Positions 27,853 through 54,500 are shown, counted from the stretch's first letter. The stretch is 64,000 nt of DNA from Myxococcota bacterium (GCA_036339465.1 JAYZAY010000054.1:1-64000); one strand, 5' to 3'. Numbers and translations: made by a program. Notes: a model not told the origin generated them from the letters alone.

Positions 27853-29112
27853 TTAATCCACCCGCCAATACATGAATGACCGCGTGTTGGATAGTTCTGG
27901 GCGGTCAAAGAACGCCAGGGCTCCATCCCGCACCGCATAATCCCACTCTTCCCCGTCGTTGAGCTTATAGAACTCAACCTCGGCGCCAAAAGTATGGTGA
28001 AACGGCGGCGTTTCGACCTTTTGAAGGGCGATACCCCCTAGAGAAAGCTGGTGAACCATTTGAATCCGACTCTCACCGGCCAACTTAAAGCCATTGAGAT
28101 TCATCTGGCTGCCCACGCGCTCTTTTTGTAGGAGCCAGTAGACTTCTTTGGCCTTACTGGCCTCGGGAGGAAGCTTACAAACCAGGAGCCCCTGATTTAT
28201 CTGAAACGGCGCATAGGGCATTTTCGTCCGTGAGGTTCGAATAAGGTTTTCAAGCTCATCCAACAATGTATTGAAAAGCGGCCCTAAGCCCTGATGGTCA
28301 TAAACGAGCTTCAACGAGGGAGGCTGTTTTTCCCGATAAATTGACACATCCAGGTAAAAACCATGCATTGCTCTGAAAATATCGTAGGGGTGGTAGCGAA
28401 TATCCCCGTCTAAGTTCGCCAAAATGGCCTGGAATTCATAGAGCCCCCTTAAACATTGCTTCGCTGAAAATAAACTTGCACCGCCCAAATAGTGTTCTTG
28501 GATATCGTCAACGAGGGCTTGATGAAACGCCTCTGTAATAGAATTGGCTTTTTCAAAGACATGGTCAAAGAACGGGGAGCGTTGGGTAGACACGGTCGGA
28601 GGTATATATTCCTGGCTTAATGACCAAACCCCATCCACATCTTTTTCGAAATCCCCAAGTTTGAAGGAATGGAGGGAGGTTTCCGAGTAGGGGCTGGCTG
28701 ATAACTGTATACGCTGAAGGATCTTGTCGATGCTCTCTTCATCTTCGGATTCCATGTCGCCAGAATGCAATGTCTCAAACCCGGACTGGAGGTGTAAATA
28801 GAGAGAAACCTGTGAAGACCCAGCGATGTTCAAATTCATGGCATTGGGTTGTGTGTTTCCCGGGATATCCACCAAAACGCCACTGGGTAAAACCAGGGTC
28901 AATTCCTTTAGGCTGACGATGCCCTCGAGAAATTGGAAAGGATCCCATTCAATACTTGCCAAACCCCATTGGGGGAGTGAAAAGTTTGTAAAACGAAGAT
29001 TGCTTTCTTCCCGTAGAGAATGCTCTTGGGCATAGAAATGCTCTGGCAATAAGGCTTGCCCAATTTGCCAGTACACGCGTGCGGTCTGATGGTTGACTTT
29101 TCTTATAGCCAT
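27853..29112 (-). CDS. tssK: T6SS baseplate subunit TssK (IglD-like)
   Basis: RVYWQIGQALLPEHFYAQE, WGL, HPYDIF, YDH. The ORF-track TTG start (29187) lies inside a hairpin, so ATG 29112 is preferred. Confidence 0.88.
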   Translation of the reverse strand: MAIRKVNHQTARVYWQIGQALLPEHFYAQEHSLREESNLRFTNFSLPQWGLASIEWDPFQFLEGIVSLKELTLVLPSGVLVDIPGNTQPNAMNLNIAGSSQVSLYLHLQSGFETLHSGDMESEDEESIDKILQRIQLSASPYSETSLHSFKLGDFEKDVDGVWSLSQEYIPPTVSTQRSPFFDHVFEKANSITEAFHQALVDDIQEHYLGGASLFSAKQCLRGLYEFQAILANLDGDIRYHPYDIFRAMHGFYLDVSIYREKQPPSLKLVYDHQGLGPLFNTLLDELENLIRTSRTKMPYAPFQINQGLLVCKLPPEASKAKEVYWLLQKERVGSQMNLNGFKLAGESRIQMVHQLSLGGIALQKVETPPFHHTFGAEVEFYKLNDGEEWDYAVRDGALAFFDRPELSNTRSFMYWRVD

Positions 29113-29172
29113 ATAGATGTAATGCCGATATTCGGGGTGTGGAGTCAATGGAAATCCGAAAGAGGAGAGATG

Positions 29173-29200
29173 AAGTTCCCCACTCAAGGATGGGGAACTT
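29173..29200 (-). terminator. Stem-loop between tube gene and tssK (terminator or mRNA stabiliser)
   Basis: AAGTTCCCCA-N8-TGGGGAACTT, perfect 10-bp stem; weak U-tract. Confidence 0.55.
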
Positions 29201-29216
29201 TAACGAGGTTAAGCTG

Positions 29217-29852
29217 CTAAGCTGCGTTAACCTTGATTCCCCAGCCCCAGCAGGTTTTACTGTTTTTGGCAGTTGCAAAGTTCAGCGCTGACATAACATT
29301 CGCATCGGGGACCACCTCAAAATACATGTTATACATGTCAATTTTGATGTTGGGTGCGATTTGAGTGGGACTAGATGCCAATGTCATTTGGATCGTGCCA
29401 CCTTGGTCATTGATCTTCCCTTGCAGCGCAACGGCAGGAAAGCAACGCTCGAACCAGTCGGCTTCTTCTTGATCAAATTGGCATGCCCAATAGTTGAGGT
29501 TTGCGATGTCTGACGTACCCACTGAATCTGTCTTCTTAGCCGATAGCTGATTGAAGTTGGCACTCGAGACATAAACAGAGAAGCGGAGCGCATCACCGGC
29601 TGCGCCTCCCCAGGAGTACGAGTCCAAAATTGCGGCCACGGTTCCTGTTTTCAAGCCGGTATCGTCATCACCAGTCAAACTAAAGTCCGGGGCACTTGTG
29701 TCGTCGTACTTATAGGGAGAGTAGACAACAATATCCGGCTCCAGGGCATAATCCAGAATGGTAAGGGTAGGTAGATATCCTACGGTCTTGTTCTCGCTCC
29801 AGTTAGGTAGACACGCTTGTCTCCAATCACACTGAACATTTGTTAAACTCAT
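29217..29852 (-). CDS. T6SS tube protein, IglC/Hcp-like
   Basis: 211 aa, strong RBS AAGGAG, sits between tssC and tssK as in iglABCD; beta-rich; no canonical Hcp1 motifs. Confidence 0.7.
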   Translation of the reverse strand: MSLTNVQCDWRQACLPNWSENKTVGYLPTLTILDYALEPDIVVYSPYKYDDTSAPDFSLTGDDDTGLKTGTVAAILDSYSWGGAAGDALRFSVYVSSANFNQLSAKKTDSVGTSDIANLNYWACQFDQEEADWFERCFPAVALQGKINDQGGTIQMTLASSPTQIAPNIKIDMYNMYFEVVPDANVMSALNFATAKNSKTCWGWGIKVNAA

Positions 29853-29907
29853 TATAAGCTCCTTAAATGGAAAAGTTTTCGTTCAAATCACTGTATCTTT
29901 TGTGGGG

Positions 29908-31395
29908 TTAGCCCAAACGCGCATCCACTCGAAGGTCTACATCCATACCTTCAAACTGAATATGAGGGAGAATGGAGAGGTTACAGTGATACCAACCCAC
30001 ACGGCCAGGAACTTCGTTGACTTCGAGGCTATAGGCCTTGAAGGGGTAATAACGAAGCGTTAGATCGTCGGGGTTGACCACAGTGGTGATATACTTCGAA
30101 ATCCAATGGTCAATTTGGTTGTAGATATAGGGCGCATCGGCGGTGCTACCTATATTGTCTCGCATAATGCACTTGAGATAGTGCGCAATGCGACTGATGG
30201 AAAATGTGTAGGAGAGATTTGACACCAGCTGGGAATTTTCAGAATCTTTTGGGTCCTTGAAGTTGTGAGACTTCTTAATGGATTGCACACTGAAGAAAAC
30301 CGCGTCTGACGAACCCTTCTTCTGGATGAGGGGAATCAAGCCACTGTTGGCCAGCTCAAGTTCTCGGTAGTCAGGCATGGTGACTTCACATGGAAGCTTG
30401 AGTTGGGTCTCTCCGCGAAATTCGAATTTATGGCTGGGTAGTCCAGCCACCAGGCCGCCGGCCTTTGGCCCACGAATATGCTGGCACCATCCTGACGTTT
30501 CGAAGGATTTTGCCAGATTACGGCCCATCAACAACGAAGCAGGTGCCCAAAGATAATCACTGTCCTCATTGCCAACCCTTTCTTCGAATGACACACCCTC
30601 GGCAGGATTTGTTTCATCGCTATAGGGACGTCGAGCCAGGTAGCGTGGCATTGTCAGACCGATATAGGCTGCTTGTTCGGTTTCCCGAAGCTGATTCCAT
30701 CCAGCGTATTTTGGTGTGTCGAGCATACCCTCGATGTCTCGCAAGTTATTCACTTCGGCCATGGTTTCGCATCCAAAAAATTTGGGTGAAACCGAGCCAA
30801 CGAAAGGGGCATGGGAAGCCGTGGCGACTTTACCCATGGCCTTGAGCCAGAGAAGATCCTTTGGCGTATTGTTGAAATCATAGAGACCGAGGACCGAACC
30901 CCAGGGTGCCCCACCATACTGGTCATATTCGGAAACATAGATTTTTTTGAAGAATTCGGAGCCAGCAATATCAGCGGCGTTCATTTCGAGATCTTCAAAA
31001 GCTTCTTCTTTGGACACGTCCAAAAGCCCGAGTGATATGTCTGCTTTAAAATTGACGTTATTACAGAGATCCTCAATGCCTCTCCACACCGACTCCACTT
31101 CTTGGAACGCTTCAGCGTGGTAAACTTCGTTGAGTTGATCTTCGATAAGCACATCGACTTGATTCACGAGATCTGCGATACGCTGCTTATCAAAGCGGAC
31201 GCCACCTTCGTCCATGTTGTATACAATGGTTGCAAGACTCGAGAGAAAGCGGTCTTCCTCGCTTACGTCCTCAGCCAAATCATTCATATGATTGGTAAGC
31301 ATGGGTATTGGGGATTCCACTTCGCTGCTGAGCTTCACACTCGATAAAAATGAAGGTAAGTCTAATGTGACTTCGGTATCTGTTTGATCTGCCAT
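29908..31395 (-). CDS. tssC: T6SS contractile sheath large subunit TssC (IglB-like)
   Basis: EYDQYGGAP, ASHAPF, YIGLTMPR, GWCQHIRGP, NLSYTFSISRIAHY, RYYPF, PHIQFEG. Confidence 0.95.
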   Translation of the reverse strand: MADQTDTEVTLDLPSFLSSVKLSSEVESPIPMLTNHMNDLAEDVSEEDRFLSSLATIVYNMDEGGVRFDKQRIADLVNQVDVLIEDQLNEVYHAEAFQEVESVWRGIEDLCNNVNFKADISLGLLDVSKEEAFEDLEMNAADIAGSEFFKKIYVSEYDQYGGAPWGSVLGLYDFNNTPKDLLWLKAMGKVATASHAPFVGSVSPKFFGCETMAEVNNLRDIEGMLDTPKYAGWNQLRETEQAAYIGLTMPRYLARRPYSDETNPAEGVSFEERVGNEDSDYLWAPASLLMGRNLAKSFETSGWCQHIRGPKAGGLVAGLPSHKFEFRGETQLKLPCEVTMPDYRELELANSGLIPLIQKKGSSDAVFFSVQSIKKSHNFKDPKDSENSQLVSNLSYTFSISRIAHYLKCIMRDNIGSTADAPYIYNQIDHWISKYITTVVNPDDLTLRYYPFKAYSLEVNEVPGRVGWYHCNLSILPHIQFEGMDVDLRVDARLG

Positions 31396-31438
31396 CTAAT
31401 TTCTCCAATTCGTTCGATTAAAATTGTTGCGTTTGTTT

Positions 31439-31984
31439 TTATTCTGCTGCGGGTTCTTCTGCTGTGGCTACAACTTTGGTTGGGACCTTAAAGCACGTGT
31501 GATCCTTAAGTGAACTCTGAAGAGCGGAAACCGCGTCAGGGCTATCGCTTAGAGCTTGCACCAAACGACGAAAATCTTTTCGGTTATCGAGGTTTGATTG
31601 TGCTTCCAGTAGTAGCTTCTTGAGCAACATCAATCCCTTCACTTTAGGAATGGCATTTCCCACCGCGAGTGGTTCAAAGGATTTCATGGATTCAATGGGG
31701 ATTTCGATATCGAGACCCTCAGAATTTTCGGCATCGATTCTATTGGGCACAGTCATTTTAATGGAAACGCCCATATCTTTGAGAACCGCATTTAAATTGG
31801 TGCCATCGAGCTGGCGAATGTTACGAGCATCTAAATCGTTTGCCCGGTCGGTGGATGTTCCCGCAGATAAATCACCCATCACCAGCATTCTGAAGGGCAA
31901 TGTAACCTCTTCTTTTTGACCTTCTACCTGAGTTTTGTAAGTAAGAGTTAGTCTGGATTTTGGAATTTCTTGATTGATTGCCAT
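31439..31984 (-). CDS. tssB: T6SS contractile sheath small subunit TssB (IglA-like)
   Basis: IPKSRLTLTY, LPFRMLVMGDLS, VPNRI, SMKSFEP. Confidence 0.93.
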   Translation of the reverse strand: MAINQEIPKSRLTLTYKTQVEGQKEEVTLPFRMLVMGDLSAGTSTDRANDLDARNIRQLDGTNLNAVLKDMGVSIKMTVPNRIDAENSEGLDIEIPIESMKSFEPLAVGNAIPKVKGLMLLKKLLLEAQSNLDNRKDFRRLVQALSDSPDAVSALQSSLKDHTCFKVPTKVVATAEEPAAE

Positions 31985-32223
31985 CGGTTCCCCCAAGGCG
32001 TTTAGGACTCTAAGTCATTTATCTAAAATATGTTTAGGCAGTGACATTCTTACCACTCACCCACGATCCGAACGGAGTTCATCCGAGCACACGCCCAGGC
32101 TTCGAGTCAAGAAATTTGTTCACCGGTTAGGAAGGCTTGAGGAGGGTATGGATAAGAAGGGGCGACTTGCTTACGCTCTCCAGCTTGAGTGACAGACACT
32201 CCATGGGGGGGCGGAGAGCATAC

Positions 32224-33114
32224 TCAACTTTTCTGAGCCGTGCTGCCGTTAAAGACAGTAATTTGGTGTTCAGAAACGCTAGAAGTTCTGATCTTTTCAA
32301 AACCGAGAAAGCCAGCGTTTCCGAGAGTCGCGGAACTGGCATGCTCTTCGACCACCAATACGACTTTCAGCCACAGTGGTGTTGCTTTTAATTTAGGAAG
32401 AAGTCGAGTGGACATGCGTTGTGTTACCAAGAGTGGCCAAGCAGATCCAGTCATCTGTTTTTCGTCCCGGGAATAGAGGATTATCAAAAAGCCACAGATG
32501 GTGGCATTGAAATGCTTACCCAAAGTGGAAGATCCATCCATGACGGAGTGCCCTGTTTGAGCGCCCGAATGGGGCAGCGCGTTTTTGAAACGTTGGCGCT
32601 CAACGACGACTTTGAGTTCGGGGAAATAGAGCGAGAAGAGCCAGCTAAGCCCACTGACGGAATCAAGACCGACCATTTTTGCGTACGCGATTTTGTGAGC
32701 ATCCCAGGATTCATAGAGATGTTGATCGAGTTCCACATAGAGTAGACTGATAAAGGATCGAAGGAGTTGATTGTCAAAGAAACGAAGGAAATTGAAGAAT
32801 GGATCTGGATTTTCCAGGCCTTCAGCAATCTGCATAAAGTAGGAAGGTAAGAGTCCCCGTTGATCGTGGAGCCCTAAATTTAGCCTCACCACCACATGCT
32901 TCGGTGGCCCGTCTTTGAAAATCACTTCGTGGACCAAGGCGTTAATCGACCCGCTATCCATATTGCTTTCGAATAAAATATCGTTCAATTCATAGCCGGC
33001 CCGAGCTAAGACGCGAATCAACGAAATCAAATCAAAATCTCGGGCCCGTCGAGTAATCCTATCCTGATTCGTGGCTCGTTTGTTGGGGCCTAAGGGGGCT
33101 GTCATGGACGCCAT
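32224..33114 (-). CDS. tssG: T6SS baseplate subunit TssG (IglJ-like)
   Basis: FDLISLIRVL, ILFESN, NLGL....LLPSY, FLRFFDNQL, YFPEL. Confidence 0.8.
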   Translation of the reverse strand: MASMTAPLGPNKRATNQDRITRRARDFDLISLIRVLARAGYELNDILFESNMDSGSINALVHEVIFKDGPPKHVVVRLNLGLHDQRGLLPSYFMQIAEGLENPDPFFNFLRFFDNQLLRSFISLLYVELDQHLYESWDAHKIAYAKMVGLDSVSGLSWLFSLYFPELKVVVERQRFKNALPHSGAQTGHSVMDGSSTLGKHFNATICGFLIILYSRDEKQMTGSAWPLLVTQRMSTRLLPKLKATPLWLKVVLVVEEHASSATLGNAGFLGFEKIRTSSVSEHQITVFNGSTAQKS

Positions 33115-33160
33115 GAGATTTCAACTCTCCTTAATTTATTCCCAAATGACGGGATGGGGC

Positions 33161-34165
33161 CTACTGTGAAATAAAGGATTCCAGATCCACTTCGTAAAAT
33201 TGTCTTAAGGTTTCCCATTTTATCCCGTCTCGCTCTTGCCAATGTCCGGAGATGGTTTGAATATTTTTATTGAGGTCCCCATAGAAATTGGCGAAGAGGG
33301 CGGGAAAATATTTCCTGGGGTCAAAGTTTTGGATCAAACCGGAGACATCATCTCCGACCAAGGCAGCTCGGTCTAATTTTTTTGCTTCCACCAAGGATTG
33401 AAAGGCTTTGAGCTTTCGAATCAAAGCCAATAGTTCGGCTGATGGTCCCTGCGTGCCAAAAAGGATATCCAATATTTCGGATGCATCGGAGAGTTTAGCC
33501 TGTGGACGTATGGTGTCTGGGGTTGAGGTCGGGGAAAAATCCCCTTGTGATTCGGTCGATGGTGGTTTGTTTTCCTCTGACACGGACACCTCAGCATTTT
33601 CTTTCGGATTCTCTAAGTGGTGACCTAGATTTCCGAGTTCCCGAGTTAAACTGCTAAATAGGGTTTTTAGGTCAGCGGAATTGAGCTTGTCAAAGAGCCA
33701 TCCTTCCAGCTCGCACACTTGCTCCAAAACCATCTGAAGTTTTTTCTCAGAAAGTCCCAAGACCCATTCCTGCAACTGTTCATCCTTCTTTAAACGATGG
33801 TATTCGATATTGCGAATGAGTTTTTCTAGCAGTGTTGCAACTGATTTAACGACATGTCTGTTCTTTTGTTCAGTTGGGCCAAAACCATCCCATGAGGATT
33901 GGAGAAAGAGTCGGAATGCTTCGCAGTGTTGGCCAAAAACAACCACACTTTCTTGGAGGAATACGTGATATAAGTCGAAGCATAACAGCCTTATATCGAG
34001 AATGTTTTTATCGACCAACGCTTGAATTTCTTCAGAGGCTTCGAGATAGCGTTCTGTCTCGTAGAGATCGCAAATCGATTGAAAGCGTGGGTCAAGGGAA
34101 TCTAGTCCGCTGACCATTTCAGCAGAAGGCGGCGGGTTACGGAGAAATTTAAGAGCTAACGTCAT
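33161..34165 (-). CDS. iglI: T6SS IglI-family protein
   Basis: ILDIRLL, disordered linker, KLKAF..LV, AALV..D, NFDPRKYFP; precedes tssG as iglI precedes iglJ. Start may instead be 34228. Confidence 0.7.
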   Translation of the reverse strand: MTLALKFLRNPPPSAEMVSGLDSLDPRFQSICDLYETERYLEASEEIQALVDKNILDIRLLCFDLYHVFLQESVVVFGQHCEAFRLFLQSSWDGFGPTEQKNRHVVKSVATLLEKLIRNIEYHRLKKDEQLQEWVLGLSEKKLQMVLEQVCELEGWLFDKLNSADLKTLFSSLTRELGNLGHHLENPKENAEVSVSEENKPPSTESQGDFSPTSTPDTIRPQAKLSDASEILDILFGTQGPSAELLALIRKLKAFQSLVEAKKLDRAALVGDDVSGLIQNFDPRKYFPALFANFYGDLNKNIQTISGHWQERDGIKWETLRQFYEVDLESFISQ

Positions 34166-34410
34166 TGGCCATATTTCTAACCTTAGTTTTAGAGGCTGTC
34201 CAACTTTAACGGTCTCCTTAATCTCCATTTTGCCTGAGATTTGGGACTTCTACTGGCCAACACCACCGTATACCCCTGCGTCCTCCTACAATACTCTGTT
34301 TTTTTGATAAGCGAATTCTTTTATTTTTTATAGACTTAGGGATAGATAGCCAAGGATATGAGCCACTGAATTTTAACCCCCAAGAAAGCGGCGGGGCGAG
34401 GGGACGTTCC

Positions 34411-43850: not shown

Positions 43851-44729
43851 TCATTTTGGATCTGGGGATCCTTTGGGTTTTGCTGGCTCTAGTGTGGGAT
43901 CCATTGGCGGCGTTGCCTGAGGTTTGTCAGATGCAGTCTCTGCTTGTTGGGGGTCAAGTGCAGCACTTAAACCCGCGTCCTCAAACATTGAAGCCGCAAG
44001 GCGAGTCTTCCGGATTTCTTTTAAGGCATTTTTGATGCGCAACTGATTGTCAAGAATCTCGGTAGCATCAACATCAGCTGATTCTATCACTTCAAATGCG
44101 TTGTCTTTGGGTCGCATTTCGAGATAATTTTCATCACTTGTGTCTAAAACAGCACGCCTTTGTTGCAAAGTGCAGTCATAGGTAATGTGATACTGATTTT
44201 CAATAATCCGGTAAATCTGTGATTCTGGTGCCAATAGGCCAGGTTTTTCATCCAAAGGTTTAGGGATAATCCGTCGGTCCATGCTTCCCATGAGTCGTGA
44301 CATGGCATCGAAATAAAAATGCTGAAAAATGATTTCGGATTCATTGCGGCCGAAAACCTCGATTTTAAGGAGACGGCGCCGATAGAAGACGACGGTTGCT
44401 TGAGTCGTCCCTACAAATCCATCAACATCAGTGAGCTCATACTCTTCTTTTCCTATGTTGGGCGACTCTTGAAGGATTTCGATATTGCGACGCTCCTGGG
44501 CAATTTCTTTAAGCGAGGCCGGAGGGTCAGTCCTTTCCTCAGGGGAGATAAAACAGGTTCTATTTTCAGATAGCTTGAGTGAATATAAATGGTTGGTGTG
44601 GATGGCTTGTCCGGTGTATTCCTGGGGCTGAAAGAGGCTACTTCCCAATAAGAAGACGAGGGCTATAACGAAGACGGCCGCCACCACCAGCCAAAATAGA
44701 ATTTTCCAAAATTTAATTAAAGCTTCCAT
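43851..44729 (-). CDS. Hypothetical membrane-anchored protein
   Basis: 292-aa ORF with a single N-terminal TM helix. Confidence 0.7.
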   Translation of the reverse strand: MEALIKFWKILFWLVVAAVFVIALVFLLGSSLFQPQEYTGQAIHTNHLYSLKLSENRTCFISPEERTDPPASLKEIAQERRNIEILQESPNIGKEEYELTDVDGFVGTTQATVVFYRRRLLKIEVFGRNESEIIFQHFYFDAMSRLMGSMDRRIIPKPLDEKPGLLAPESQIYRIIENQYHITYDCTLQQRRAVLDTSDENYLEMRPKDNAFEVIESADVDATEILDNQLRIKNALKEIRKTRLAASMFEDAGLSAALDPQQAETASDKPQATPPMDPTLEPAKPKGSPDPK

Positions 44730-44821
44730 GAAACAATCGTAATATACAAACAGAACCAGAATTGATAATGATGTTGAAGTTTATATCTCAATAGCTTTGC
44801 TCTCAAGATTCATGCTTACTC

Positions 44822-45208
44822 TTATCTACCATCCCTGGCAAACCAATACTCGATGCCTTGTATGAGGAGGTTCTTATTGACGGGCTTGATTATCCAGGCG
44901 GTTGCACCAGCTTGACGCCCTCGCCCTGACACTACGGGGGACCCTTCGGTTGTGAGGACAAAAATGGGGGTTTTTGTGTGCAGAGGAAGCATACGAACCT
45001 CCTCAATGAGTTCCAAACCACTCATATTGGGCATATTCATATCCGTTATGATTAAATCAATGGCATCGTTGTTTCGAGCCAGGTTCAATCCATCACCGCC
45101 ATCCACCGCTTCCAATATGGTGTGTCCTACGGGCTCCAAAATATTTCTAAGCTTGTTTCTCACGACCGACTGGTCGTCCACTACCAAGATGGTCTTCGCT
45201 AACATCAA
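44822..45208 (-). CDS. CheY-like response regulator
   Basis: ILVVDD, DLIITDMNMP, VLTT, WIIKP. Confidence 0.93.
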   Translation of the reverse strand: MMLAKTILVVDDQSVVRNKLRNILEPVGHTILEAVDGGDGLNLARNNDAIDLIITDMNMPNMSGLELIEEVRMLPLHTKTPIFVLTTEGSPVVSGRGRQAGATAWIIKPVNKNLLIQGIEYWFARDGR

Positions 45209-45271
45209 CTACCCTCTTTAAATATTATGGGACCAATGACCCACTCAATTTCTTTTGTCTAGGCTTTTAGT

Positions 45272-45817
45272 CTAAGAGTCGTGTTCACATCTGGTATTGA
45301 GGGGTAAAAGCTGATGATTCAAAGACAAACTAGATTTTAGGGTTCTCAAAATTTGTTTTCCACAGATCATGCGCTTTATCGGCAAATAGAGCAAAGCCAC
45401 AATGACCAATTCCTCAATGATCCAAGCACTGGATAGCAAGGATAGGTTTTGGTCGTCATTCGCTTGTAAGAGCACCATCCGGGGAATCGGGTCTTCTTCA
45501 CAAAATTGTTCAAGAAAAGGGGCGGAAAAGTGGTCGTTGCGCATTTCAAAAGCCTTTATGAGGGAAGAATAATGCGCATCGATGGAATCGAGATTCCCAG
45601 GTTGGGCACTCAGCTGCAAGGTTTGGGGGAATTGGACGTTATCTTTCTTGTTACATTGGGCAGAAATGGCCCTCGAAGGATCACCGGACATGTCGATGCT
45701 CCCAAATGTGCTCAGACAGAGGGTGAGGGGGTAGTTTACCCACTGAGATGCTTCGGGAATGACGTGAAATTCACCGGGCAACTCCAAACAGAGTCCACCG
45801 TATTCTCGAATGTTCAT
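45272..45817 (-). CDS. Hypothetical protein coupled to the methyltransferase
   Basis: 181 aa; ATGA overlap with the upstream gene. Confidence 0.6.
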   Translation of the reverse strand: MNIREYGGLCLELPGEFHVIPEASQWVNYPLTLCLSTFGSIDMSGDPSRAISAQCNKKDNVQFPQTLQLSAQPGNLDSIDAHYSSLIKAFEMRNDHFSAPFLEQFCEEDPIPRMVLLQANDDQNLSLLSSAWIIEELVIVALLYLPIKRMICGKQILRTLKSSLSLNHQLLPLNTRCEHDS

Positions 45818-46911
45818 GCCTCTTCTTTTGCTTTTGGTGGCTGTTTTCGAGCCATTGCCAGCCGAGAAAGATATTGGATGGTGTTTCTGGCGTGGACTCT
45901 CACGTCCCAGGGAATATCCAACTCTTCCTCAACCCTGAGCGATTCACCATTGGACAATTGCAAGGCCTGAATTAATTCGAGAAAAACCTGCTCACTGGAG
46001 CCTTCACAATTGGTTCGCTGGGAATGTCCGCCCAACCATCCGGCCATGGGCGTTGCTTGGGCTGACCAGTCAAATGGCGTTGAAAGATAAAGGGGGCTAT
46101 GGACTTTCAGCACTCTCAACAATTCGTGAATATGGTTTGCCGGAGCGCTGACACAATCGAGTAAATTTAAACTCAAGGCCGCGCCCACACTGCCGCCGGA
46201 GAAAGGTAGAGCCATGGCATCACAAGCCCAAAAATCTACCCGCTCCATGCCCACTGACTTATAATGAATGTCATGGGTGTCATAAACTACCCCCACCCGT
46301 TTTCGAGGATAAGAAGCACGCCCGGTGGAGATGAGTTTCTGAGCAAATCGAAGCATCGTAAAATTTAAGTCGATTCCCAAAACCGGTTGAGCTGATTTCA
46401 CCCGAGCCGCGATTTCAAAGGTGGCTCGCCCCAATGCACAACCAACATCTATAAGCGGACTATCGAGGGGTAGTGCTTCTCGAGCAAACAACGGTTCCAA
46501 GAATGCAGAGATTGGAGACACCGAATCCGATTGATTCAAATCAAGATCAAACTCTCGATAGTGGCCATCGGCGTACGCACTTAGATAATGCCGGCCTACG
46601 TCAAATGCCGCACCGGGCCCCAAACAATCACCGATAAGCCCTGTGGTGAGAGAACCTAAGTCTTCACGCCATAATATCTCATGGGCATGTTCCGATACAT
46701 AGTCACGAAGATTGGGGACAATAATCGGAATGCCATCGATAATGGGGTATTCTGAGCGACATTCAGAATCCTCGCAAATCAAAAGCCCCTCTTCAATGCC
46801 CAAAGATGATGACTTTGACACCGACCCTATTTTCAGGGGGGTTTCTCGTTCGAAACGCTGCCGACAATTGGGACATACGGGGCGAAAAATCTCAAAGTGC
46901 AACGATTTCAT
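45814..46911 (-). CDS. Trm112-like Zn ribbon fused to a class I SAM methyltransferase
   Basis: CPNC...C....C..EYPIIDGIP; LIDVGCALGR, LGIDLN, NLLDCV. Confidence 0.85.
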   Translation of the reverse strand: MKSLHFEIFRPVCPNCRQRFERETPLKIGSVSKSSSLGIEEGLLICEDSECRSEYPIIDGIPIIVPNLRDYVSEHAHEILWREDLGSLTTGLIGDCLGPGAAFDVGRHYLSAYADGHYREFDLDLNQSDSVSPISAFLEPLFAREALPLDSPLIDVGCALGRATFEIAARVKSAQPVLGIDLNFTMLRFAQKLISTGRASYPRKRVGVVYDTHDIHYKSVGMERVDFWACDAMALPFSGGSVGAALSLNLLDCVSAPANHIHELLRVLKVHSPLYLSTPFDWSAQATPMAGWLGGHSQRTNCEGSSEQVFLELIQALQLSNGESLRVEEELDIPWDVRVHARNTIQYLSRLAMARKQPPKAKEEA

Positions 46912-46929
46912 TCCACCATTCTCCGGATT

Positions 46930-47342: not shown

Positions 47343-47729
47343 TTAATTGAGATGAATCATCTTACCTCGGACGCGAACCTCTCCCAGGCCTGTCACTTCA
47401 ACATCCTCACCGGCTTCCAATTTCATGGATTTCGCACTTTTCACCACGCAACCTTCCTCAGCCTCAAGGGTGATATTCTTGGCGCAGAGGTGAAGGTGCT
47501 CGCCACCTTCAAGCCGTAGTTTTGAAGAGGCTATAGCAATGGTGGGGCCAGATTCTTCCATGGTGATTTTTAGTATCACGCTTTTTTGGGGGATCTCAGA
47601 AACCATTGCTTGGGTTTGAATTTCAAGATTGAGGGTATCGCCTGGGGCAATCTCCACCCGCTGACTTCGGCTCGAAGAATCGACTTCATGAAGAATAGAT
47701 TTCTCTTTGGGTAAAATAAGAGCAGACAT
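47343..47729 (-). CDS. Short gp5-like beta-helix / spike needle protein
   Basis: Repeated beta-strands (LHLCAKNITLEA, MKLEAG), terminal VRVRGKMIHLN; directly upstream of PAAR. Confidence 0.6.
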   Translation of the reverse strand: MSALILPKEKSILHEVDSSSRSQRVEIAPGDTLNLEIQTQAMVSEIPQKSVILKITMEESGPTIAIASSKLRLEGGEHLHLCAKNITLEAEEGCVVKSAKSMKLEAGEDVEVTGLGEVRVRGKMIHLN

Positions 47730-47804
47730 CGTTCCCCCACTTTCTCTTGTGGCTGTCCCGTAGCACGGCCAAGTCCAATGGGCAATTGAGCGAAAGCAAT
47801 GTCT

Positions 47805-50423
47805 CTATTTTTCTTTAGAAATTTCAGCGTCTTGGGAAATAGCATCGCTTGTGGGTGGCTTTTGGATATCCAATTTTAGTTGACCCTCTAATTTTTGGAC
47901 ATGGACCACGTCCAGTTCCTCAACATCCCCTTGCACAATCAGCTCCGCAATGGGGTCTTGGAGTTCCCGCTGAATACACCGCTTGAGGGGCCTTGCACCA
48001 TAGGCTGGGTTGTAACCCAATTGGGCTAAATGGGTGACTGCTTCGTCGGAAACGACAAGGGTTATCTTCCTCTCTTCCAAGAGTTTTGCCACCCGTTTTA
48101 CCTGAATTTTCACAATGGGTTGCATAGCGGTGCGGGTGAGGGGACGAAAAATCAGTAAATCATCCAATCGATTGATGAATTCTGGTCTGAAATGGTCCTT
48201 CACCGCCTTATTTATGGAGGATTTCAGACGCTTGTAAACGGCGCTTGTATCTTCAAGATCCTCAGGTAAATCAGAGATGGCGGATCCTAGATTGGATGTC
48301 AAAAGAAGAATCGTGTTCTTGAAATTGATGGTTTGACCTTGACTATCGGTCAAGTGACCATCGTCTAAGACTTGGAGTAGAAGGTTGAATACGTCCCCAT
48401 GTGCCTTCTCTACTTCGTCCAATAGGACGACGCTATATGGTTTTCGTTTCACTTGATTGGTGAGTACACCACCTTCCTCGTAACCGACATAACCAGGGGG
48501 GGAGCCGATCAATCGAGCCACTGAGTGCTTCTCCATGTACTCACTCATATCGATCCGAATGAGGGACCGCTCATCACTGAACATGAAAGCGGCCAAGGTC
48601 TTTGCCAGCTCTGTCTTACCGACTCCTGTGGGCCCAAGCATCAAAAATGAGGCTAAGGGGCGATTGGGGTCTTGTACCCCGGCTCGTGAGCGGCGGATTG
48701 CTTTGGCAACTGCGGCTACCCCTTCTTGCTGCCCCACAACCCGCTCTGTTAATTCCGACTCCAAATTCATGAGCCGCTGGCTCTCTTCATCCATCAGCTT
48801 TTTAACGGGAATGCCGGTCATATGGGCAATGGTTTCTGCGATGTCCTCTGGTGTGATTTCTTGGCGCAAAAAATGCGTTTCATCGGGGGAAATTTCTTCA
48901 CAGTCACCAACTCTTGTTTCCAGATCAGGGATAATTTTGTATTGGAGTTGGGCGACCCTTGCAAAATCTTCGTCGCGTATTTTCTGTTCCATTTCGCGAC
49001 GAGCGTCCTCCAGCTCTTGTTTGAGATTTTGCGAATTCAGAATACTCGCCTTCTCTTTTTCCCACCGTTGTAGCATGGTCGCATATTCGCGGTGCAGCTC
49101 ATCTAGGCTTTCTCGTAACTTTTCAGACTCGGGGGTAGGGCGATTGTCGTTGTCTTGTTCAAGGGCCCTAATTCCAATTTCTTGATGAACAATCTTCTCA
49201 TTGAGATTTTCAATTTCGATGGGTTTGGAAGCCAATTCCATCCGAACATTGGCTGCGGCTTGGTCGATGAGGTCGATGGCCTTATCTGGAAGATATTTTT
49301 CCGTCAGGTATCGGTCTGAGAGGGAAACTGCGGCATGAATCGCGGAATCGAGAATACGAACCCCATGATGCAATTCGTAAATTTCCCGTAGGCCTCGTAA
49401 AATGGTTGTGGCTTGCTCTAGAGTAGGTTCTTCCACGAGCACCATTTGAAAACGTCGATTTAATGCGGCGTCGGTTTCGATTTTTTTGCGGTATTCTGTG
49501 GTGGTGGTGGCTCCCAAACACCTAAATTCGCCTCGGCTTAGGGCAGGCTTTAATAAATTCGATGCATCCGCAGCTCCCTCAGCGGCACCAGCGCCCACCA
49601 GCATATGAAGCTCGTCAATAAATAGAAGAATGTTTCCCGCATGAGAAGCCTCAGCCAAAACGGTCTTCAATCGCTCTTCAAACTCCCCACGAAATTTCGC
49701 CCCCGCAATAAGCTGCCCGAGATCCAGTGCCAAAACACGGTGACCCAATAGTGTATCTGGTACGTCGCCATCGGAAATTTTTTGGGCCAACCCCTCGACG
49801 AGCGCCGTTTTTCCAACGCCAGGTTCACCGACAATCGCTGGGTTGTTCTTCAAACGCCGACTCAATATTTGGATGACTGCTCGAATTTCAGAGTCGCGCC
49901 CCAAAATGGGATCAATCTTTCCTTCTTGGGCCCGTTTGGTTAAATCTGAGGTATATTTCGAGAGCGTTTCAAATGCACCTGCATCGGATGTATCTCCAAC
50001 GGTTTCCAAGGCTCGTTCAAGTTCTAGGGAGTCGGTCCCCGCTTCCACCAAGCTATTTTGAATCGACTCCTCTTGGATCAGGGCATGGAGGACCTGTTGA
50101 TTGGATATCTTTTTGAGTTTTTTCTGTTGGGCATATTCATGGGCACGAATTAGAATTGCTTCCAGACTTCGATTAACCGGGGTTTGGGTTTGTTCGGTGG
50201 TCGCTTTTGGAACGGCTTGAAAATTGTCTTTTAAGTTGGTTCGAAGCCGTTCCCTATCTACTGAAGTAATGTCAAAATACTTTTGAGCCCCCAAATCACT
50301 ATTCTCTAAATAGGCATGTAAAAGATGGTGAGGGCTCACGTATTGATGCTCTAGGGAAAGAGCATACCGGCATGCTGTTTCAATTGCCTTTTGCGCACTT
50401 AGATTAAAATTCTCAATTCTCAT
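47805..50423 (-). CDS. clpB: ClpB-type AAA+ ATPase inside the T6SS locus (probable ClpV role)
   Basis: [26 protein letters not shown], coiled-coil M domain, [28 protein letters not shown]. Confidence 0.9.
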
Positions 50424-50535
50424 GGTTGAATCCTATGGGGATAGCCCTTTATATCATTGATATATCTCGATGCTTCTCTGCTCAACATGAGATTTATTGC
50501 AGCCGAGAATAAAAAATTGTTGCTTAGGAGGCAAA

Positions 50536-51045
50536 TCAACGCTGCCAGGATATTTTATCGATGACCAAATAAACATCGAGAAGTGCACTGATTTGCTCAA
50601 GGGCTTCCCTTAATGCCTCGTGGGGTTCTTCCGACACCAAAAGAACTTCCCTTGGGCCTTCGTCTTGTTCGACTTGATCTTGTTCGACTTGATCTTGTTC
50701 GACTTGTTCGACTTGGTGTTTCTCAGGTTTCGAATCGGTTCCCGATTCAGGGGAGGTGGGCTGGAAATTTTCCGGCTTTGAATCTTCGGGATCACGTGAT
50801 TTGTTCTGGGGCAAATAAAGCACCCTCAACAGAGCCTCCACTTTTTCTAGGCGTTCGCCGAAAACTTCCATTTCTCGGGGCAATTGCAGGGTGATTTCCC
50901 GTCGAAGAGTGGCCACAAGTTCCAATGCGCGTTCATAGGGAGTTCGCGTGTCAATCTCAGGAAGCGACTTGAGTTGAGGACGCGTGGAAACCTCCTCAAA
51001 TAGCCAATTTTCGCGAAGTCGCTCAATGTCGAAAATATAGGACAC
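50536..51045 (-). CDS. Hypothetical T6SS-associated protein with QVEQD repeat
   Basis: GTG 51045 after RBS GGGGAG, just downstream of dotU. Confidence 0.65.
   Translation of the reverse strand: MSYIFDIERLRENWLFEEVSTRPQLKSLPEIDTRTPYERALELVATLRREITLQLPREMEVFGERLEKVEALLRVLYLPQNKSRDPEDSKPENFQPTSPESGTDSKPEKHQVEQVEQDQVEQDQVEQDEGPREVLLVSEEPHEALREALEQISALLDVYLVIDKISWQR
50663..50715. repeat. In-frame 15-bp tandem repeat (TCTTGTTCGACTTGA, about 3.5 copies)
   Basis: Encodes QVEQVEQDQVEQDQVEQD. Confidence 0.9.
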
Positions 51046-51061
51046 CCAGACCCACTCCCCC

Positions 51062-51757
51062 TCAAAAATTCGTAGAAAAATCGATGTAGCCCACCAAAAA
51101 GAGCAAGCAATAGACACCCAACACAGTCCCTAAGCCAAAAACGTAGTATCGCCACGGAAAATCAACAAGCTCCACGCCTTGGTCATCCATGGCCTCTCTT
51201 GTTGCCGGGGTGAAATTTGGGAGGGGTATTTTGGCTTCTAGGCGGGCGAGATAATCCCCGAGACGGGCTTCTGTGTTGATGAACGCGCCCTTAAAACCAT
51301 TTCGTAAACAAAAATAGAAAACTTCGAAAACCAAGGGTAGGGTCTGGGGGCGTCGCAGCAGTTCATCGGCAGTGGTGAAAAATATTTCTCCACCATTGTC
51401 AATATTGAACAATTCCTTTTGAAGTGGAGACCAGATCCGAGCCTTATCGGATAAATATTGATGCACCATCTCATCGAAATGAATGGTTAGTGGAAAGAGA
51501 CAATAATAAACTTCACGTTCGGTGAGTTCTATGGAAAGCTGTTGCTTCAACCACCCGAGTCGACTTCGAATCAACGAGCGTAGTTTGACAATATCCGCTC
51601 CTTCAGATGTCCCGTCGAGGTATTTTCCGCCGGGAAGTGAAGCCGCTTCACCTTGTAAACGTAGAAACTGCTTTTCTTCAATCAGAGCTTCTCTGCAGGC
51701 AGTCTCGGTTTCGGTTACGACCTGCTCGATTATAAACCATAGCTGTTCACCACTCAT
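51062..51757 (-). CDS. tssL: T6SS TssL / DotU
   Basis: PLTIHFDE, W.PLQ.ELF....GGEIFF, EVFYFCL..GFKG, C-terminal TM. Confidence 0.9.
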   Translation of the reverse strand: MSGEQLWFIIEQVVTETETACREALIEEKQFLRLQGEAASLPGGKYLDGTSEGADIVKLRSLIRSRLGWLKQQLSIELTEREVYYCLFPLTIHFDEMVHQYLSDKARIWSPLQKELFNIDNGGEIFFTTADELLRRPQTLPLVFEVFYFCLRNGFKGAFINTEARLGDYLARLEAKIPLPNFTPATREAMDDQGVELVDFPWRYYVFGLGTVLGVYCLLFLVGYIDFSTNF

Positions 51758-51773
51758 CTTTGATCCTTAGACC

Positions 51774-53432
51774 CTAGCGATACACAAATCGCTCCCCTAG
51801 GGCTGGAATATTCATTGTAAGTTCAACAACTTCTTCACTATTCCAAACCTTCAAAATATCCAAGATTTCTGCGCCCAAGAGATGGGTGACTGGCAATAGA
51901 TTCATATCCAATTGTCCAAAGGTGAGGCAATACACATATTTCATGCCGGCACTCGCGCGTGCGTAGGGAGTATGCTCTACGGTCAAAGATTCCAATGACT
52001 GAACCGATTTCGTAAAAAATCCGCGGGCATGAACATTCACAGATTCGAGGAGTAAAATGAGGTCTTGGAGGGTCAATTGCTTCTTATGTTTAATGGACAA
52101 AATATTGATTAACTTATTGATATCTTGGTCAATATCACTACGGACGACGGGGAAAATACCGGCGCTTTTTTTCCAAGCAACACCTTCAAGATGACGGTCA
52201 TAGAGTTTGACGTCCCACTCGAAACGCTGGAACTGAGTGGGATCAGCATTGTACCATAGGGCATCCACCGCCACGGTTTGAGGATCCTCGAAAGCATTTT
52301 CCAGTTGTAGGTAAAGCCAGGTATCCCGCCTATTATTGATTTGTTCCCATTCTAATTCATAACAATCAACGCTCTCTTCCACGACCCCAGGCGCAATGGG
52401 ATCCAATTGATCGGCCTCTGCCCGGTAGACACCGAGGATTGATTGAACCTCAGAATCATCCCCACCATCGGAGGCACGGACTTTGTATCGCTCTTTGGTG
52501 CCGTCACAGAGAATAGGGTTTGCCAAGGTACGATTTAGGTTTGCGATGGGAGTGGTATTTAACCGAAAGGTATCGGCAGAAAAACGCAGTTGCTGGGGCC
52601 AATTTGAATCAAGCTCCAGAGAAATGGCAAAGTTTTGCCATTCAGAAGGTGTCGATTCTGGTGTGATGTTGAGGTAAAGGTCCTGTTGGGGAAAGCTGAA
52701 GAACGACCGAGAACGCTCCAAAGGTCTGCCCAAAATTCGGTCTTTTTGGGGCGGATTCGGTGCGGAAAAATTGATTTCGCAAGCAAGGCTCTCAGCCCCT
52801 TCGGTCACTTTTTGATCGAAATAGATTCGCGAGCCCAGGAGATGTTTGCGAAGATAGTACCGGACTGCGGCCGAAGCCATGAAATCATTGTGATGATTGA
52901 TATAGAGATTCAGCGTATCCAAAGTTTCGCGTCGAGAAAAGTCCGCGCCAAAACTTAGAACCAGTCGGTAGCCTTGGTTGGGGCGGCGATAAATATTCAC
53001 GGAATCCAAATAAATAGGTAAAACCCGCAAGGGATAGAGCGTCTTAAATTGGAGTGGCTCCACGCTCGGATAAATTGAATCCTTTGGCTTTGAAGGTTGC
53101 AACAAGACCCCAGTCGCTGTGGGGAGCGTCGAAACATCCACAAACCGAGGGGTGGTGGTGGCCTCCAATAAGCTCATGGGGGGAATTGGGTCTAAGAGGT
53201 AGGGGAAATGTTGTTGAAACATTCGGACATGACTGCGGCGAATGCTGCGTTCACCCACGACCCGAGTCCGGGCACTAAACATGGCCATGGCTTCAATAAG
53301 ACGCCGAATGTCTGGGTCGTCTCGATTCAAGATAGAATCAGGATAAACCCCTAGGTGCGTAATCCTAAATTTTTCAAGCTCTTGTAGCTCTTTTAGGAAC
53401 TCTTCGTAGAGTAAATCGCTGTTGGACTCCAT
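51774..53432 (-). CDS. tssF: T6SS baseplate subunit TssF (IglH-like)
   Basis: FLKELQEL, DDPDIRRLIEAMAMFSAR, FPYLLDPIPPM, FFSFP, LNTTPIANL. Confidence 0.9.
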   Translation of the reverse strand: MESNSDLLYEEFLKELQELEKFRITHLGVYPDSILNRDDPDIRRLIEAMAMFSARTRVVGERSIRRSHVRMFQQHFPYLLDPIPPMSLLEATTTPRFVDVSTLPTATGVLLQPSKPKDSIYPSVEPLQFKTLYPLRVLPIYLDSVNIYRRPNQGYRLVLSFGADFSRRETLDTLNLYINHHNDFMASAAVRYYLRKHLLGSRIYFDQKVTEGAESLACEINFSAPNPPQKDRILGRPLERSRSFFSFPQQDLYLNITPESTPSEWQNFAISLELDSNWPQQLRFSADTFRLNTTPIANLNRTLANPILCDGTKERYKVRASDGGDDSEVQSILGVYRAEADQLDPIAPGVVEESVDCYELEWEQINNRRDTWLYLQLENAFEDPQTVAVDALWYNADPTQFQRFEWDVKLYDRHLEGVAWKKSAGIFPVVRSDIDQDINKLINILSIKHKKQLTLQDLILLLESVNVHARGFFTKSVQSLESLTVEHTPYARASAGMKYVYCLTFGQLDMNLLPVTHLLGAEILDILKVWNSEEVVELTMNIPALGERFVYR

Positions 53433-53587
53433 ACACTCGAACCTTCCACTCTAACTGGGCACACCACACTGCATGCATTTCGCATGCGAACTCCTACCAC
53501 AAGCAGAGGGTCTCTGCTACTTATCCTCGTATGGCGAAGTTCGGTCTATGTGAGGGGCATTGTGGTGTTTTTAACGGCGATAGCCAC

Positions 53588-53602
53588 TGGCTTATGGTTT
53601 GC
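53588..53602 (+). promoter_or_regulatory. Possible sigma-54 promoter facing the short vgrG
   Basis: TGGCTTATGGTTTGC (TGGC-N7-TTGC) in the tssF/vgrG divergent gap. Confidence 0.35.
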
Positions 53603-53837
53603 CCAATAATAAAGCGAGATAAAAAGCCCAAAATAGTGTCTTCGGTTTCCATCGATTACTTCTTCAAGACCGGTTTACGCAGCCCCTCGGCTAAAACTGC
53701 TTACAATTTGTTTCCTTGGATGCTCAATGGTAGCGTCTATCGAAAAATTCAGGGCTTTAAATCTCTCGGGCCAAGAGAGTCTATAGAGAAAAAACGACAG
53801 GTCCTATTGGAAAGAAACAAGGGAAATAGAGTCACCC

Positions 53838-54500
53838 ATGGCCAGCTCCAGTAAACCGTTTGTATGTCGTGTTCTGGTGAGCAAAACCAGCGGCGTGAAA
53901 ATCGAAGTCGAAAATGAGAGTGGTAAAATCACCCAAACAGTCCATATGGACGGAACCAAAATCGAAACCACGGTTAAGGGAGAGAAAAAGACCAGTACGA
54001 TTACCCAAAAAGACGGCAGTTTCGTTTTTAAAGTGAAGGGTGACAAGGAAACCAGCACCATCACCCAAACCGATGAAAAAGTTACCATCGAATGCAAAGA
54101 CTACACGGTGGATGCTGAAACCATCACCATGAAATCAAAAAAGGAATTCAAGCAGGAGAGCAAAGACATCTACTCGGCGAGTAGTACCAAAGCACTCACC
54201 GTGAAGTCCTCATCCACGGCCACGATTCAAAGCTCCAAAACCATGACCCTTAAGTCCAGTGCGGCCCTCAATGTACAAGCGACCAGTGCCTTAGCGCTCA
54301 AGGGGCGTACTGCACAGATAAAAGCTTCTCAAAAAGCGACTATTGATGGGGGGTTGCAAGGGGAGCTTAAGGGCACTTCGGTTAAAGTGAGTGGGAAAAG
54401 CACCAATGTCAGTGGTGATATGACCCAAATCAAAGGTAAAATCACCAAGATTCAGGGGACGGCGGTGGCTATTTCTGGTCCCGCGATCAAAATAGGATAA
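53838..54500 (+). CDS. vgrG: Short needle-only VgrG (gp5 beta-helix), Francisella VgrG-like
   Basis: 220 aa, K/T/S-rich periodic beta-strands, internal repeat VKG.K.TSTITQ, terminal VAISGPAIKIG. Confidence 0.75.
   Translation: MASSSKPFVCRVLVSKTSGVKIEVENESGKITQTVHMDGTKIETTVKGEKKTSTITQKDGSFVFKVKGDKETSTITQTDEKVTIECKDYTVDAETITMKSKKEFKQESKDIYSASSTKALTVKSSSTATIQSSKTMTLKSSAALNVQATSALALKGRTAQIKASQKATIDGGLQGELKGTSVKVSGKSTNVSGDMTQIKGKITKIQGTAVAISGPAIKIG

Follow-up and report, generated by a model that had tools for sequence, protein, structure and literature searches.

The 64,000-nucleotide stretch of DNA analysed here (the window; Myxococcota bacterium, GCA_036339465.1, JAYZAY010000054.1:1-64000) carries, between nt 27853 and 54500, 17 intact type VI secretion system (T6SS) genes together with a few inserted genes. 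It is highly probable that this locus encodes a complete, and probably working, contractile T6SS of the same deep lineage as the systems encoded on Francisella's pathogenicity island (FPI) and the Francisella novicida island (FNI), that is, T6SS-ii in the broad sense, and that it belongs to a large environmental branch of this lineage in Myxococcota and some Gammaproteobacteria. This assignment draws on the genes present and the families to which they belong, on fold matches, and on tree position and distribution, all of which were observed in the current study. Each of the 17 core reading frames is full length and stop-free, their products align end to end with those of relatives, and the common gene set was found again in nine long related loci, two of which (L021 and L029) nearly duplicate L003, so that these do not represent nine independent loci (related genomes and loci are cited by number as G and L). 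A preliminary description of the same DNA, made from the sequence alone, had proposed a Francisella-type T6SS with hybrid parts. Every gene it listed is present, intact and where it had been placed, the peptide strings it quoted occur in the TssB and TssC translations, and the comparisons by which it could have failed, of TssB/TssC with T6SS-i and of the tube, spike head and IglI candidates with IglC, PdpA and IglI, all turned out in favour of the proposal.

Sheath, tube and spike

A two-subunit contractile sheath, TssB plus TssC, is encoded, both products scoring above the cut-offs of their curated models. Searched against the sequences of the Protein Data Bank (PDB), TssC matched IglB best (3j9o_B, 430.6 bits), followed by P. 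aeruginosa TssC1 (341.7 bits), the 5urw sheath (330.1 bits) and VipB (326 bits); the lowest of eight solved TssC matches was 9n4v_A (297.5 bits), which we take to be a Bacteroidota sheath. IglA (3j9o_A) was likewise the best solved match of TssB, at 87.3 bits, all others reaching 58.1 bits at most. An exhaustive HMMER search with TssC over 1.84 billion representatives recovered 5483 proteins at E ≤0.001, and these are divided by a gap in score, the top 33 representatives lying at 380–666 bits (41–70% identity) and the rest at 348 bits or below. Those in the top group that carry a name come from a Myxococcales metagenome-assembled genome (MAG), Sorangium So ce1099, a MAG labelled 'Deltaproteobacteria' and, as IglB, Cysteiniphilum, a genus that the abstract of one paper describes as a close relative of Francisella. 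The closest named relatives (64–69% identity) are assigned to Myxococcota, Polyangiaceae, Minicystis and four Sorangium strains.

For tree construction, 173 TssC rows were collected and reduced to 150 by dropping 19 of partial coverage and 4 near-copies; the FPI-like and other groups were initially defined by the score gap described above. FastTree placed the window TssC and Cysteiniphilum IglB within a 43-row clade (support 100), and a quick IQ-TREE run (LG+G4, SH-aLRT) on 86 selected rows gave a branch, also with support 100, that sets apart 34 FPI-like rows. When eight rows were added, the resulting 94-row tree contained a 42-row clade (support 100) comprising the window TssC, the FPI IglB proteins of two Francisellaceae genomes (G468 and G666, see below), the FNI-like TssC and Cysteiniphilum IglB. 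The subclade of the window has 33 rows (support 96), and the remaining 52 rows, including the T6SS-i copies of relatives from the same phylum, lie on the opposite side of the branch. Both by PDB scores and by these quick, unrooted trees, TssB/TssC group with IglA/IglB of the true FPI and not among the T6SS-i representatives. Because the trees are unrooted, they give the grouping partners of the window TssC and not which form is older, and so do not establish an ancestral status.

As a separate observation, many TssC representatives of this clade are 600–1325 aa in length. The four that were scanned (P0125, P0130, P0135 and P0137, the last from Sorangium sp. So ce1099) are natural TssB–TssC fusions in which an N-terminal VipA domain is followed by a C-terminal VipB. 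The VipA match of P0135 and P0137 is partial or far from the N-terminus, and a long insert is possible there. A single-chain T6SS sheath subunit would be unusual.

In place of Hcp the locus has a tube protein of about 210 aa that is of the IglC type by its predicted fold. The AlphaFold2 model of tube protein 1 (pLDDT 87.7, pTM 0.86), compared with the PDB by Foldseek, had a single match at E ≤0.001, which was IglC (2qwu_A; E 4.7e-6, TM-score 0.68/0.69, 14% identity); Hcps reached TM-scores of 0.42 at most (normalised by query length). A word-based homologue search with tube 1 returned the query itself and nothing else, and an Atlas search yielded nothing usable, the Atlas's own tube model having a pLDDT of 0.27. 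Twenty-two homologues were gathered from genes situated after tssC or before tssB in related loci. Tube 1 and its paralogue, tube 2, are the only tube candidates in the genome. Orthologues of tube 2 occur upstream of tssB in L002, L014, L015, L016, L017 and L026, and the two paralogues are kept in the closer relatives, while a more distant subclade (L003, L004) has one. Tube 2 and the AMP-binding-like gene described below had been missed in the preliminary description.

The spike is split, as in the FPI, into a PdpA-like hub and a separate small VgrG. The hub, or head, has 145 relatives at E ≤1e-5; among the 120 matches listed, all are without a Pfam domain and those with names are called 'hypothetical'. 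A family profile built from 47 sequences had PdpA as its only PDB match (6u9e_A, E 6.6e-8), aligning head residues 20–207 with PdpA residues 215–414. The AlphaFold2 model of the head (pLDDT 87.2) agrees with this, since its top three Foldseek matches were the PdpA structures 6u9e, 6u9f and 6u9g (E 1.5e-27 to 6.4e-27; TMq 0.71–0.72), and fused VgrGs and spikes of extracellular contractile injection systems (eCIS) came behind PdpA with TMq values of 0.42–0.65 (VgrG 8gra, 0.65). The family profile of the small VgrG matches residues 490–613 of the VgrG needle 8gra_I (E 4.4e-7) and Francisella VgrG (6u9e_B, E 0.0044). The genes for the head and the small VgrG are adjacent in L003 and L004, and a search of the genome for a fused canonical VgrG (TIGR03361) found none.

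The tip protein is more variable. The PAAR gene of the locus is the only PAAR match in the genome, and DUF4280 (PF14107), the family of the IglG-type tip of the FPI, was not found in this genome, which is 92.8% complete. The DUF4280 search works on FPI genomes, and it recovered a DUF4280 gene directly beside iglI, as in the FPI, in G001 (G001:C325:15574-15927), which shares its family with the genome of the window, and in G403 (G403:C81:26869-27222). A canonical PAAR was present in one of five relatives tested (G402, at G402:C14:32598-32795). The tip protein has been swapped within the clade, and the canonical PAAR that the preliminary description had counted among the traits of the system is present here but is not characteristic of the clade. 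The 128-aa protein encoded upstream of PAAR was not seen in related loci, and BLASTP gave no likeness to the 220-aa VgrG (E 6.9), with which it had been compared as possible kin.

The IglI candidate passes the curated IglI model (NF041244), and its family profile matches the IglI proteins of the FPI and FNI-like loci of two FPI-carrying genomes at 61–75 bits. The domain that marks TssA (ImpA_N) was not found in the genome. In a survey of the phylum, the IglI model also gave weaker matches (31–45 bits, model positions about 14–190) to open reading frames (ORFs) of 500–970 aa, and the two of these that were fetched (L050 1642-3303(+) and L051 439-2391(-)) are TssA proteins with ImpA_N and VasJ domains. 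Two IglI family members in turn matched Pfam ImpA_N below threshold (E 0.006 and 0.095), and alignment of the IglI and TssA families by hhalign was weak (probability 6%, E 0.006). IglI may be a shortened relative of TssA, which is a lead from sequence comparison rather than a result; if it were a shortened TssA-like cap, T6SS-ii would not really lack TssA.

Envelope complex, baseplate and other genes of the locus

The membrane complex consists of TssM, TssL (DotU) and an outer-membrane lipoprotein. The last is of the IglE type (PF22361), has a lipobox-like GVSGC near its N-terminus, and is encoded after tssM in relatives as well. The baseplate is represented by TssE, TssF, TssG and TssK, although the 296-aa TssG-like protein has no family match itself and its assignment rests on two of five family members that match PF06996 (T6SS_TssG; best E 3.1e-6), the gene being syntenic with iglI in relatives. 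Its equation with IglJ was tried by hhalign and was not significant (probability 0.9%, E 0.065). TssK gave weak matches only to solved structures (IglD 8dql_C, 26.5 bits; TssK 5y0e, 25.5 bits). In L003, L004, L021 and L029, tssE has tssK on one side and the head gene on the other.

ClpV stays below its cut-off, and the ATPase of the locus is of the ClpB type according to sequence models, as in Francisella, with the difference that it is a dedicated paralogue with a predicted role in recycling; a different contig encodes the housekeeping ClpB (1271 bits). In L002, L004, L014, L017 and L026, too, the paralogue is linked to the T6SS locus. TssE, ClpB and PAAR, which had led to the locus being called a hybrid, are all present. 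In seven of the nine long related loci, the lipoprotein gene is followed by that for the 585-aa AMP-binding-like protein. Four members of its family show no conservation in the phosphate-loop stretch, so that a non-catalytic role, as a structural or accessory part of the T6SS in this clade, is probable. Similar in size to IglF, and in position after iglE, the 585-aa protein was compared with IglF by hhalign and the identity was ruled out (probability 0.1%). Coordinates of all features are given in the table.

Table. Genes of the T6SS locus in the window, with strand and the basis for each assignment
Feature	Position (nt)	Strand	Basis
TssK baseplate subunit (IglD counterpart), 444 aa	27853..29187	-	TIGR03353 316 bits; PF05936 124 bits
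Tube protein 1, IglC-like, 211 aa	29217..29852	-	Predicted fold
TssC sheath large subunit (IglB-like), 495 aa	29908..31395	-	TIGR03355 479 bits, above cut-off
TssB sheath small subunit (IglA-like), 185 aa	31439..31996	-	TIGR03358 133 bits, above cut-off
TssG-like baseplate subunit (IglJ position), 296 aa	32224..33114	-	Family members match PF06996; synteny
IglI family protein, 355 aa	33161..34228	-	NF041244 216.6 bits, cut-off 100
TssE, gp25-like baseplate wedge, 127 aa	34411..34794	+	PF04965 (GPW_gp25) 28.6 bits, cut-off 27.2
PdpA-like spike hub ('head': gp27 + OB, short beta-helix stub), 539 aa	34851..36470	+	Profile, predicted fold
AMP-binding-like accessory protein, 585 aa	36479..38236	-	Partial PF00501 match, 33.7 bits
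Outer-membrane lipoprotein, IglE-like (TssJ role), 150 aa	38261..38713	-	PF22361 IglE_N 65.5 bits, cut-off 26
TssM / PdpB-like inner-membrane subunit, 1215 aa	38710..42357	-	IcmF-related_N 35.7 bits; TIGR03348 66 bits, below cut-off
Tube protein 2, paralogue of tube 1, 204 aa	42552..43166	-	26% identity to tube 1 in alignment
Inserted genes, membership uncertain: 292-aa protein, CheY-like receiver, 181-aa protein, SAM methyltransferase	43851..46911	-	
Canonical PAAR tip protein, 126 aa	46930..47310	-	PF05488 47.9 bits
Small protein upstream of PAAR, possibly needle/adaptor piece, 128 aa, membership uncertain	47343..47729	-	NF041249 weak, E 0.0025
ClpB-type AAA+ ATPase, 872 aa	47805..50423	-	TIGR03346 1087 bits (cut-off 1232); TIGR03345 777 bits (cut-off 885)
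DotU / TssL, 231 aa	51062..51757	-	PF09850 60 bits
TssF (IglH counterpart), 552 aa	51774..53432	-	PF05947 87 bits; TIGR03359 88 bits and NF041246 (IglH/TssF) 37 bits, both below cut-off
Short VgrG, beta-helix needle only, 220 aa	53838..54500	+	NF041249 (Francisella VgrG model) E 2.7e-5

The inserted genes include one with a Pfam Response_reg match (82.6 bits) and one with Methyltransf_25 and Methyltransf_11 matches; none of them was found in related loci. The SAM methyltransferase (nt 45814–46911, minus strand) lies directly downstream of PAAR and has a Trm112-like zinc ribbon and a match of 81 bits, below cut-off, to the C-terminal model of OvoA. Together with the 181-aa protein (nt 45272–45817, minus strand) it occupies a position where effector-immunity pairs often sit, and both are absent from related loci. 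A 193-aa ORF (nt 50536–51117) shows a weak IglI_fam match (E 0.0012), with no relatives found in other loci, and is not assigned to a family. About 9 kb from the T6SS locus, a 454-aa protein (nt 17787–19151, minus strand) with a MafB19-like/cytidine deaminase domain (34.5 bits) is a possible polymorphic toxin. Just past the other end are a putative secreted protein of 553 aa with a TSTD repeat at its end (nt 55373–57034, minus strand) and a 1217-aa protein with HEAT repeats and a cyclic-nucleotide-binding domain (nt 57107–60760, minus strand).

Host, distribution and alternative readings

The window is contig C54 of an assembly of 4.17 Mb in 102 contigs; G+C content is 42–51%. The description of the host as Myxococcota-like holds at the phylum level: in G029, a relative from the same phylum, a second TssC, belonging to a canonical T6SS-i, reaches 1013 bits (492 residues aligned) with the sheath of Myxococcus xanthus (5urw), which identifies the phylum as Myxococcota. 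The stretch was found in marine or seawater metagenome DNA runs (12 runs from 6 studies, each sharing at least 0.2 of the sampled words), one of these runs being guessed to be RNA and one possibly being the source sample. The survey of the phylum drew on 401 evenly sampled genomes. Genes of the IglI family were detected at E ≤0.001 in 117 of the 401, and above the curated cut-off in 75, and are concentrated in one family of 8–13-Mb genomes, many of them single-contig (96 of the 172 genomes that had a match of any kind). The Francisella-type system is therefore common in Myxococcota and not rare, and the caution voiced in the preliminary description, that FPI-like genes occur outside Francisella and that novelty needed checking, was apt. 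Named relatives of the head protein extend the range to Methylobacter psychrophilus, Methylobacter sp. S3L5C, Kofleriaceae, and MAGs labelled Planctomycetota and Syntrophobacterales, such labels being weak evidence of taxon. Databases are not blind to the system, as IglI-family proteins of these genomes already receive that name from NCBI annotation models, but the literature searched, which was not exhaustive and did not include supplements, held no description of this clade of FPI-type systems in myxobacteria.

Assembly, firing, targets and cargo can be proposed by homology with T6SSs that have been studied. TssM, DotU and the IglE-like lipoprotein would form an anchor spanning the envelope, and TssE, TssF, TssG and TssK would build a baseplate around the split spike of PdpA-like hub, small VgrG needle and PAAR tip. 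The IglC-like subunits would polymerise into an inner tube inside the IglA/IglB-like sheath, and contraction of the sheath would drive the tube and the spike, along with any cargo, into an adjacent cell. The contracted sheath would be recycled by the ClpB paralogue of the locus, a task that falls to the housekeeping ClpB in Francisella, and IglI probably has a TssA-like role in assembly.

The locus might instead be seen as a divergent T6SS-i, defined by its canonical parts, whose FPI-like features would be convergent or shared ancestral characters, with 'T6SS-ii' being merely a long branch in T6SS-i. We regard this as unlikely, although TssK passes an equivalog model derived from T6SS-i (316 bits), TssF, TssE and PAAR match canonical Pfam families, and a rooted TssC tree in one study (available text of PMC13098142) nests T6SS-ii within T6SS-i. 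Searches for Hcp (PF05638), fused VgrG and TssA (ImpA_N), for which controls were positive in E. coli, found none in the genome at E ≤0.001, and the ATPase is closer to the ClpB than to the ClpV model, falling short of the latter's cut-off. Five separate parts (the IglC fold, PdpA, small VgrG, IglI and IglE_N) are of the FPI type, and a branch with support of 100 splits its TssC, the single one in the genome, from 52 other representatives.

That the locus is a decaying or silent remnant, rearranged and interrupted so that no working machine results, is less probable still, and we consider it very unlikely. Its genes are spread over at least five blocks of differing orientation with unrelated genes inserted, whereas L004 and L014 retain a single co-oriented array; the inserted genes at nt 43851–46911 are absent from relatives, and the usual DUF4280 gene beside iglI is missing. 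Against decay stand the 17 full-length, stop-free core frames, whose products align end to end with those of relatives, and PAAR is available as an alternative tip. In addition, four RNA-labelled runs from three studies contained contigs at least 99% alike on four genes of the locus (tube1, tssC, tssB and tssM). An eCIS or prophage tail, rather than a T6SS anchored in the cell, is scarcely conceivable, given the membrane anchor of TssM, DotU and IglE-type lipoprotein, the presence of TssK and a two-subunit TssB/TssC sheath, and the fact that no capsid, tape-measure or tail-fibre family appeared in family scans of 26 proteins.

Several observations nevertheless weigh against assigning a working system to the FPI/FNI lineage. 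The tube is IglC-like by predicted fold only, without a link in sequence: tube 1 matched no family (including Pfam IglC) and, by phmmer against the PDB, no solved sequence; the tube family profile missed IglC in the PDB, its top matches being chance hits to nanobodies; and hhalign of the family with three IglC or IglC-like proteins gave a probability of 0.1%. No counterpart of IglF, PdpC or PdpD was found, IglF having been compared by hhalign and the remaining ORFs of the Francisellaceae loci described below matching no window profile; PdpE is absent from the FPI copies used for comparison. TssK, TssF, TssE and PAAR are canonical in appearance, so that the system does not share the 'reduced' aspect of the FPI. 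The TssC trees are quick as well as unrooted, with SH-aLRT or FastTree local support and LG+G4 without mixture, and their rows are the 150 proteins most similar to the query, so that sampling of the distant T6SS-i, -iii and -iv lineages is thin; the rooted topology mentioned above points the same way, as does the fragmented gene layout. The RNA-library contigs may reflect carry-over of DNA and are a weak hint, not proof of transcription, and for the stretches of the locus without such contigs their absence carries no weight in either direction.

A more far-reaching reading, which is possible but rather doubtful, is that the clade represents the ancestral, complete form from which the FPI was derived by loss and divergence. 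Baseplate parts would have been eroded in the FPI, the dedicated ClpB lost and its job passed to the housekeeping ClpB, and PdpA enlarged; IglI would be a shortened TssA-like cap, and the two conserved IglC paralogues would share the role of the tube, for example as initiator ring and bulk tube, or with one as a cargo carrier. If this were true, harmless cultured carriers such as Sorangium, other myxobacteria and Methylobacter would offer safe models for the least understood parts of the FPI.

The placement of the locus in the FPI/FNI lineage matters in itself. T6SS-ii was given as occurring only in Francisella by Abby et al. (available text of PMC4793230), as 'uniquely' possessed by Francisella species in the abstract of a 2026 paper (PMC12955703) and as confined to that genus in a 2026 review (excerpt of PMC13584744). 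Surveys and reviews published between 2016 and 2026 share this view, to which one survey of 2026 adds Dongshaea (excerpt of PMC13098142). The clade of the window lies outside Francisella. According to the available text of PMC4793230, the TXSScan/MacSyFinder model of T6SS-ii, with profiles built from Francisella, defines the subtype in surveys, and the current results suggest that subtype-specific detection models may undercount the Francisella-type lineage. The hallmarks of the FPI (IglC tube, spike of PdpA and small VgrG, IglI, IglE and ClpB-type recycling) occur in a large sister clade in Myxococcota, and also in methanotrophs, that retains canonical baseplate parts. The origin of the FPI becomes directly testable, alignable and less diverged relatives are available for poorly understood FPI proteins (IglI, IglJ/TssG, IglH/TssF and PdpA), and non-pathogenic cultured organisms are identified in which a Francisella-type machine could be studied.

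Comparison with described type VI systems

T6SS-iii of Bacteroidota is also without TssA (available text of PMC13584744), but differs in having no TssL, TssM or TssJ homologues (available text of PMC4793230), whereas the window locus has TssM, DotU and a lipoprotein. With T6SS-i, as in Myxococcus xanthus (PDB 5urw), the locus shares the overall architecture, the TssE/F/G/K baseplate and the TssM/TssL anchor, and PAAR families are common to both; its TssC shares only 32–37% identity with the T6SS-i copies that same-phylum relatives carry, and it has no Hcp, fused VgrG or TssA, with ClpV below cut-off. The two types coexist in the 9-Mb genome of G029 (G029:C48 and G029:C86; loci L007 and L012), where the T6SS-i is accompanied by a Francisella-type system with a TssC 53% identical to that of the window and with iglI 2 kb from the IglB-like tssC.

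References for the FPI were sought in 401 sampled genomes of the class to which G401, the genome carrying L003, belongs. Six of the 401 had an IglB-like gene at E ≤1e-100, and in two of the five tested, G468 and G666, Pfam IglC was above cut-off right beside it. The locus of G468 has the full FPI gene order and ORFs of the sizes expected of PdpA (820 aa), PdpB, IglE, VgrG, IglF, IglG, IglH, DotU, IglI, IglJ, IglD, IglC, IglB and IglA. G666 carries an FPI-like island and a second island (L048), read as FNI-like, which from its gene content we take to be the FNI of the literature (PMC5014421, PMC9600919). In the former, a clpB gene (L047 19324-20001(+)) starts right after the large PdpC-sized ORF (phmmer 105 bits, profile 170 bits), an observation noted here in its own right.

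Profiles of the window families were run against the 134 ORFs of these three Francisellaceae loci, a small search space in which E-values flatter weak hits. In the order L048, G468 FPI and G666 FPI, the scores in bits were 599/539/528 for TssC, 148/133/144 for TssB, 75/61/72 for IglI, 60/64/77 for DotU, 65/33/37 for TssK against IglD, 21/39/37 for the head against PdpA, 19/37/20 for TssM against PdpB, 16.4/11.0/9.5 for the lipoprotein against IglE and 15.1/14.4/16.2 for the small VgrG. Among the 134 ORFs there was no match to the tube, TssG, TssE or 585-aa profiles, and TssF reached 5.9 bits only.

The FPI and the window locus differ in that the former is without clear TssE, TssF and TssG homologues and, lacking ClpV, uses the housekeeping ClpB (Brodmann et al., available text of PMC5481754), while the latter keeps recognisable TssE, TssF, TssG and TssK and has a dedicated ClpB paralogue inside the locus. 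The window hub is also shorter (539 aa, compared with 820 aa for PdpA), there are two tube paralogues, an AMP-binding-like gene is present in addition, a canonical PAAR serves as the tip (DUF4280 in the relatives G001 and G403), and the host belongs to the Myxococcota and is free-living and marine. The likenesses are a sheath nearest to IglA and IglB, a tube of about 210 aa with a predicted IglC fold, a spike divided between a PdpA-like hub and a small VgrG, the presence of IglI, an IglE-type lipoprotein and DotU with no TssA/ImpA_N found, and a recycling ATPase of the ClpB rather than the ClpV type, ClpB being the one used by Francisella (available text of PMC5481754). From the FNI-like island the window is separated by tree position, the TssC of L048 grouping with FPI IglB (support 82) and not with the clade of the window, and no TssE or ClpB match was seen on L048. 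Even so, L048 scores above the FPI with the TssC, TssB, TssK, IglI and lipoprotein profiles, and it resembles the window locus in having a 214-aa tube gene after tssC and a PdpA-like gene of 626 aa.

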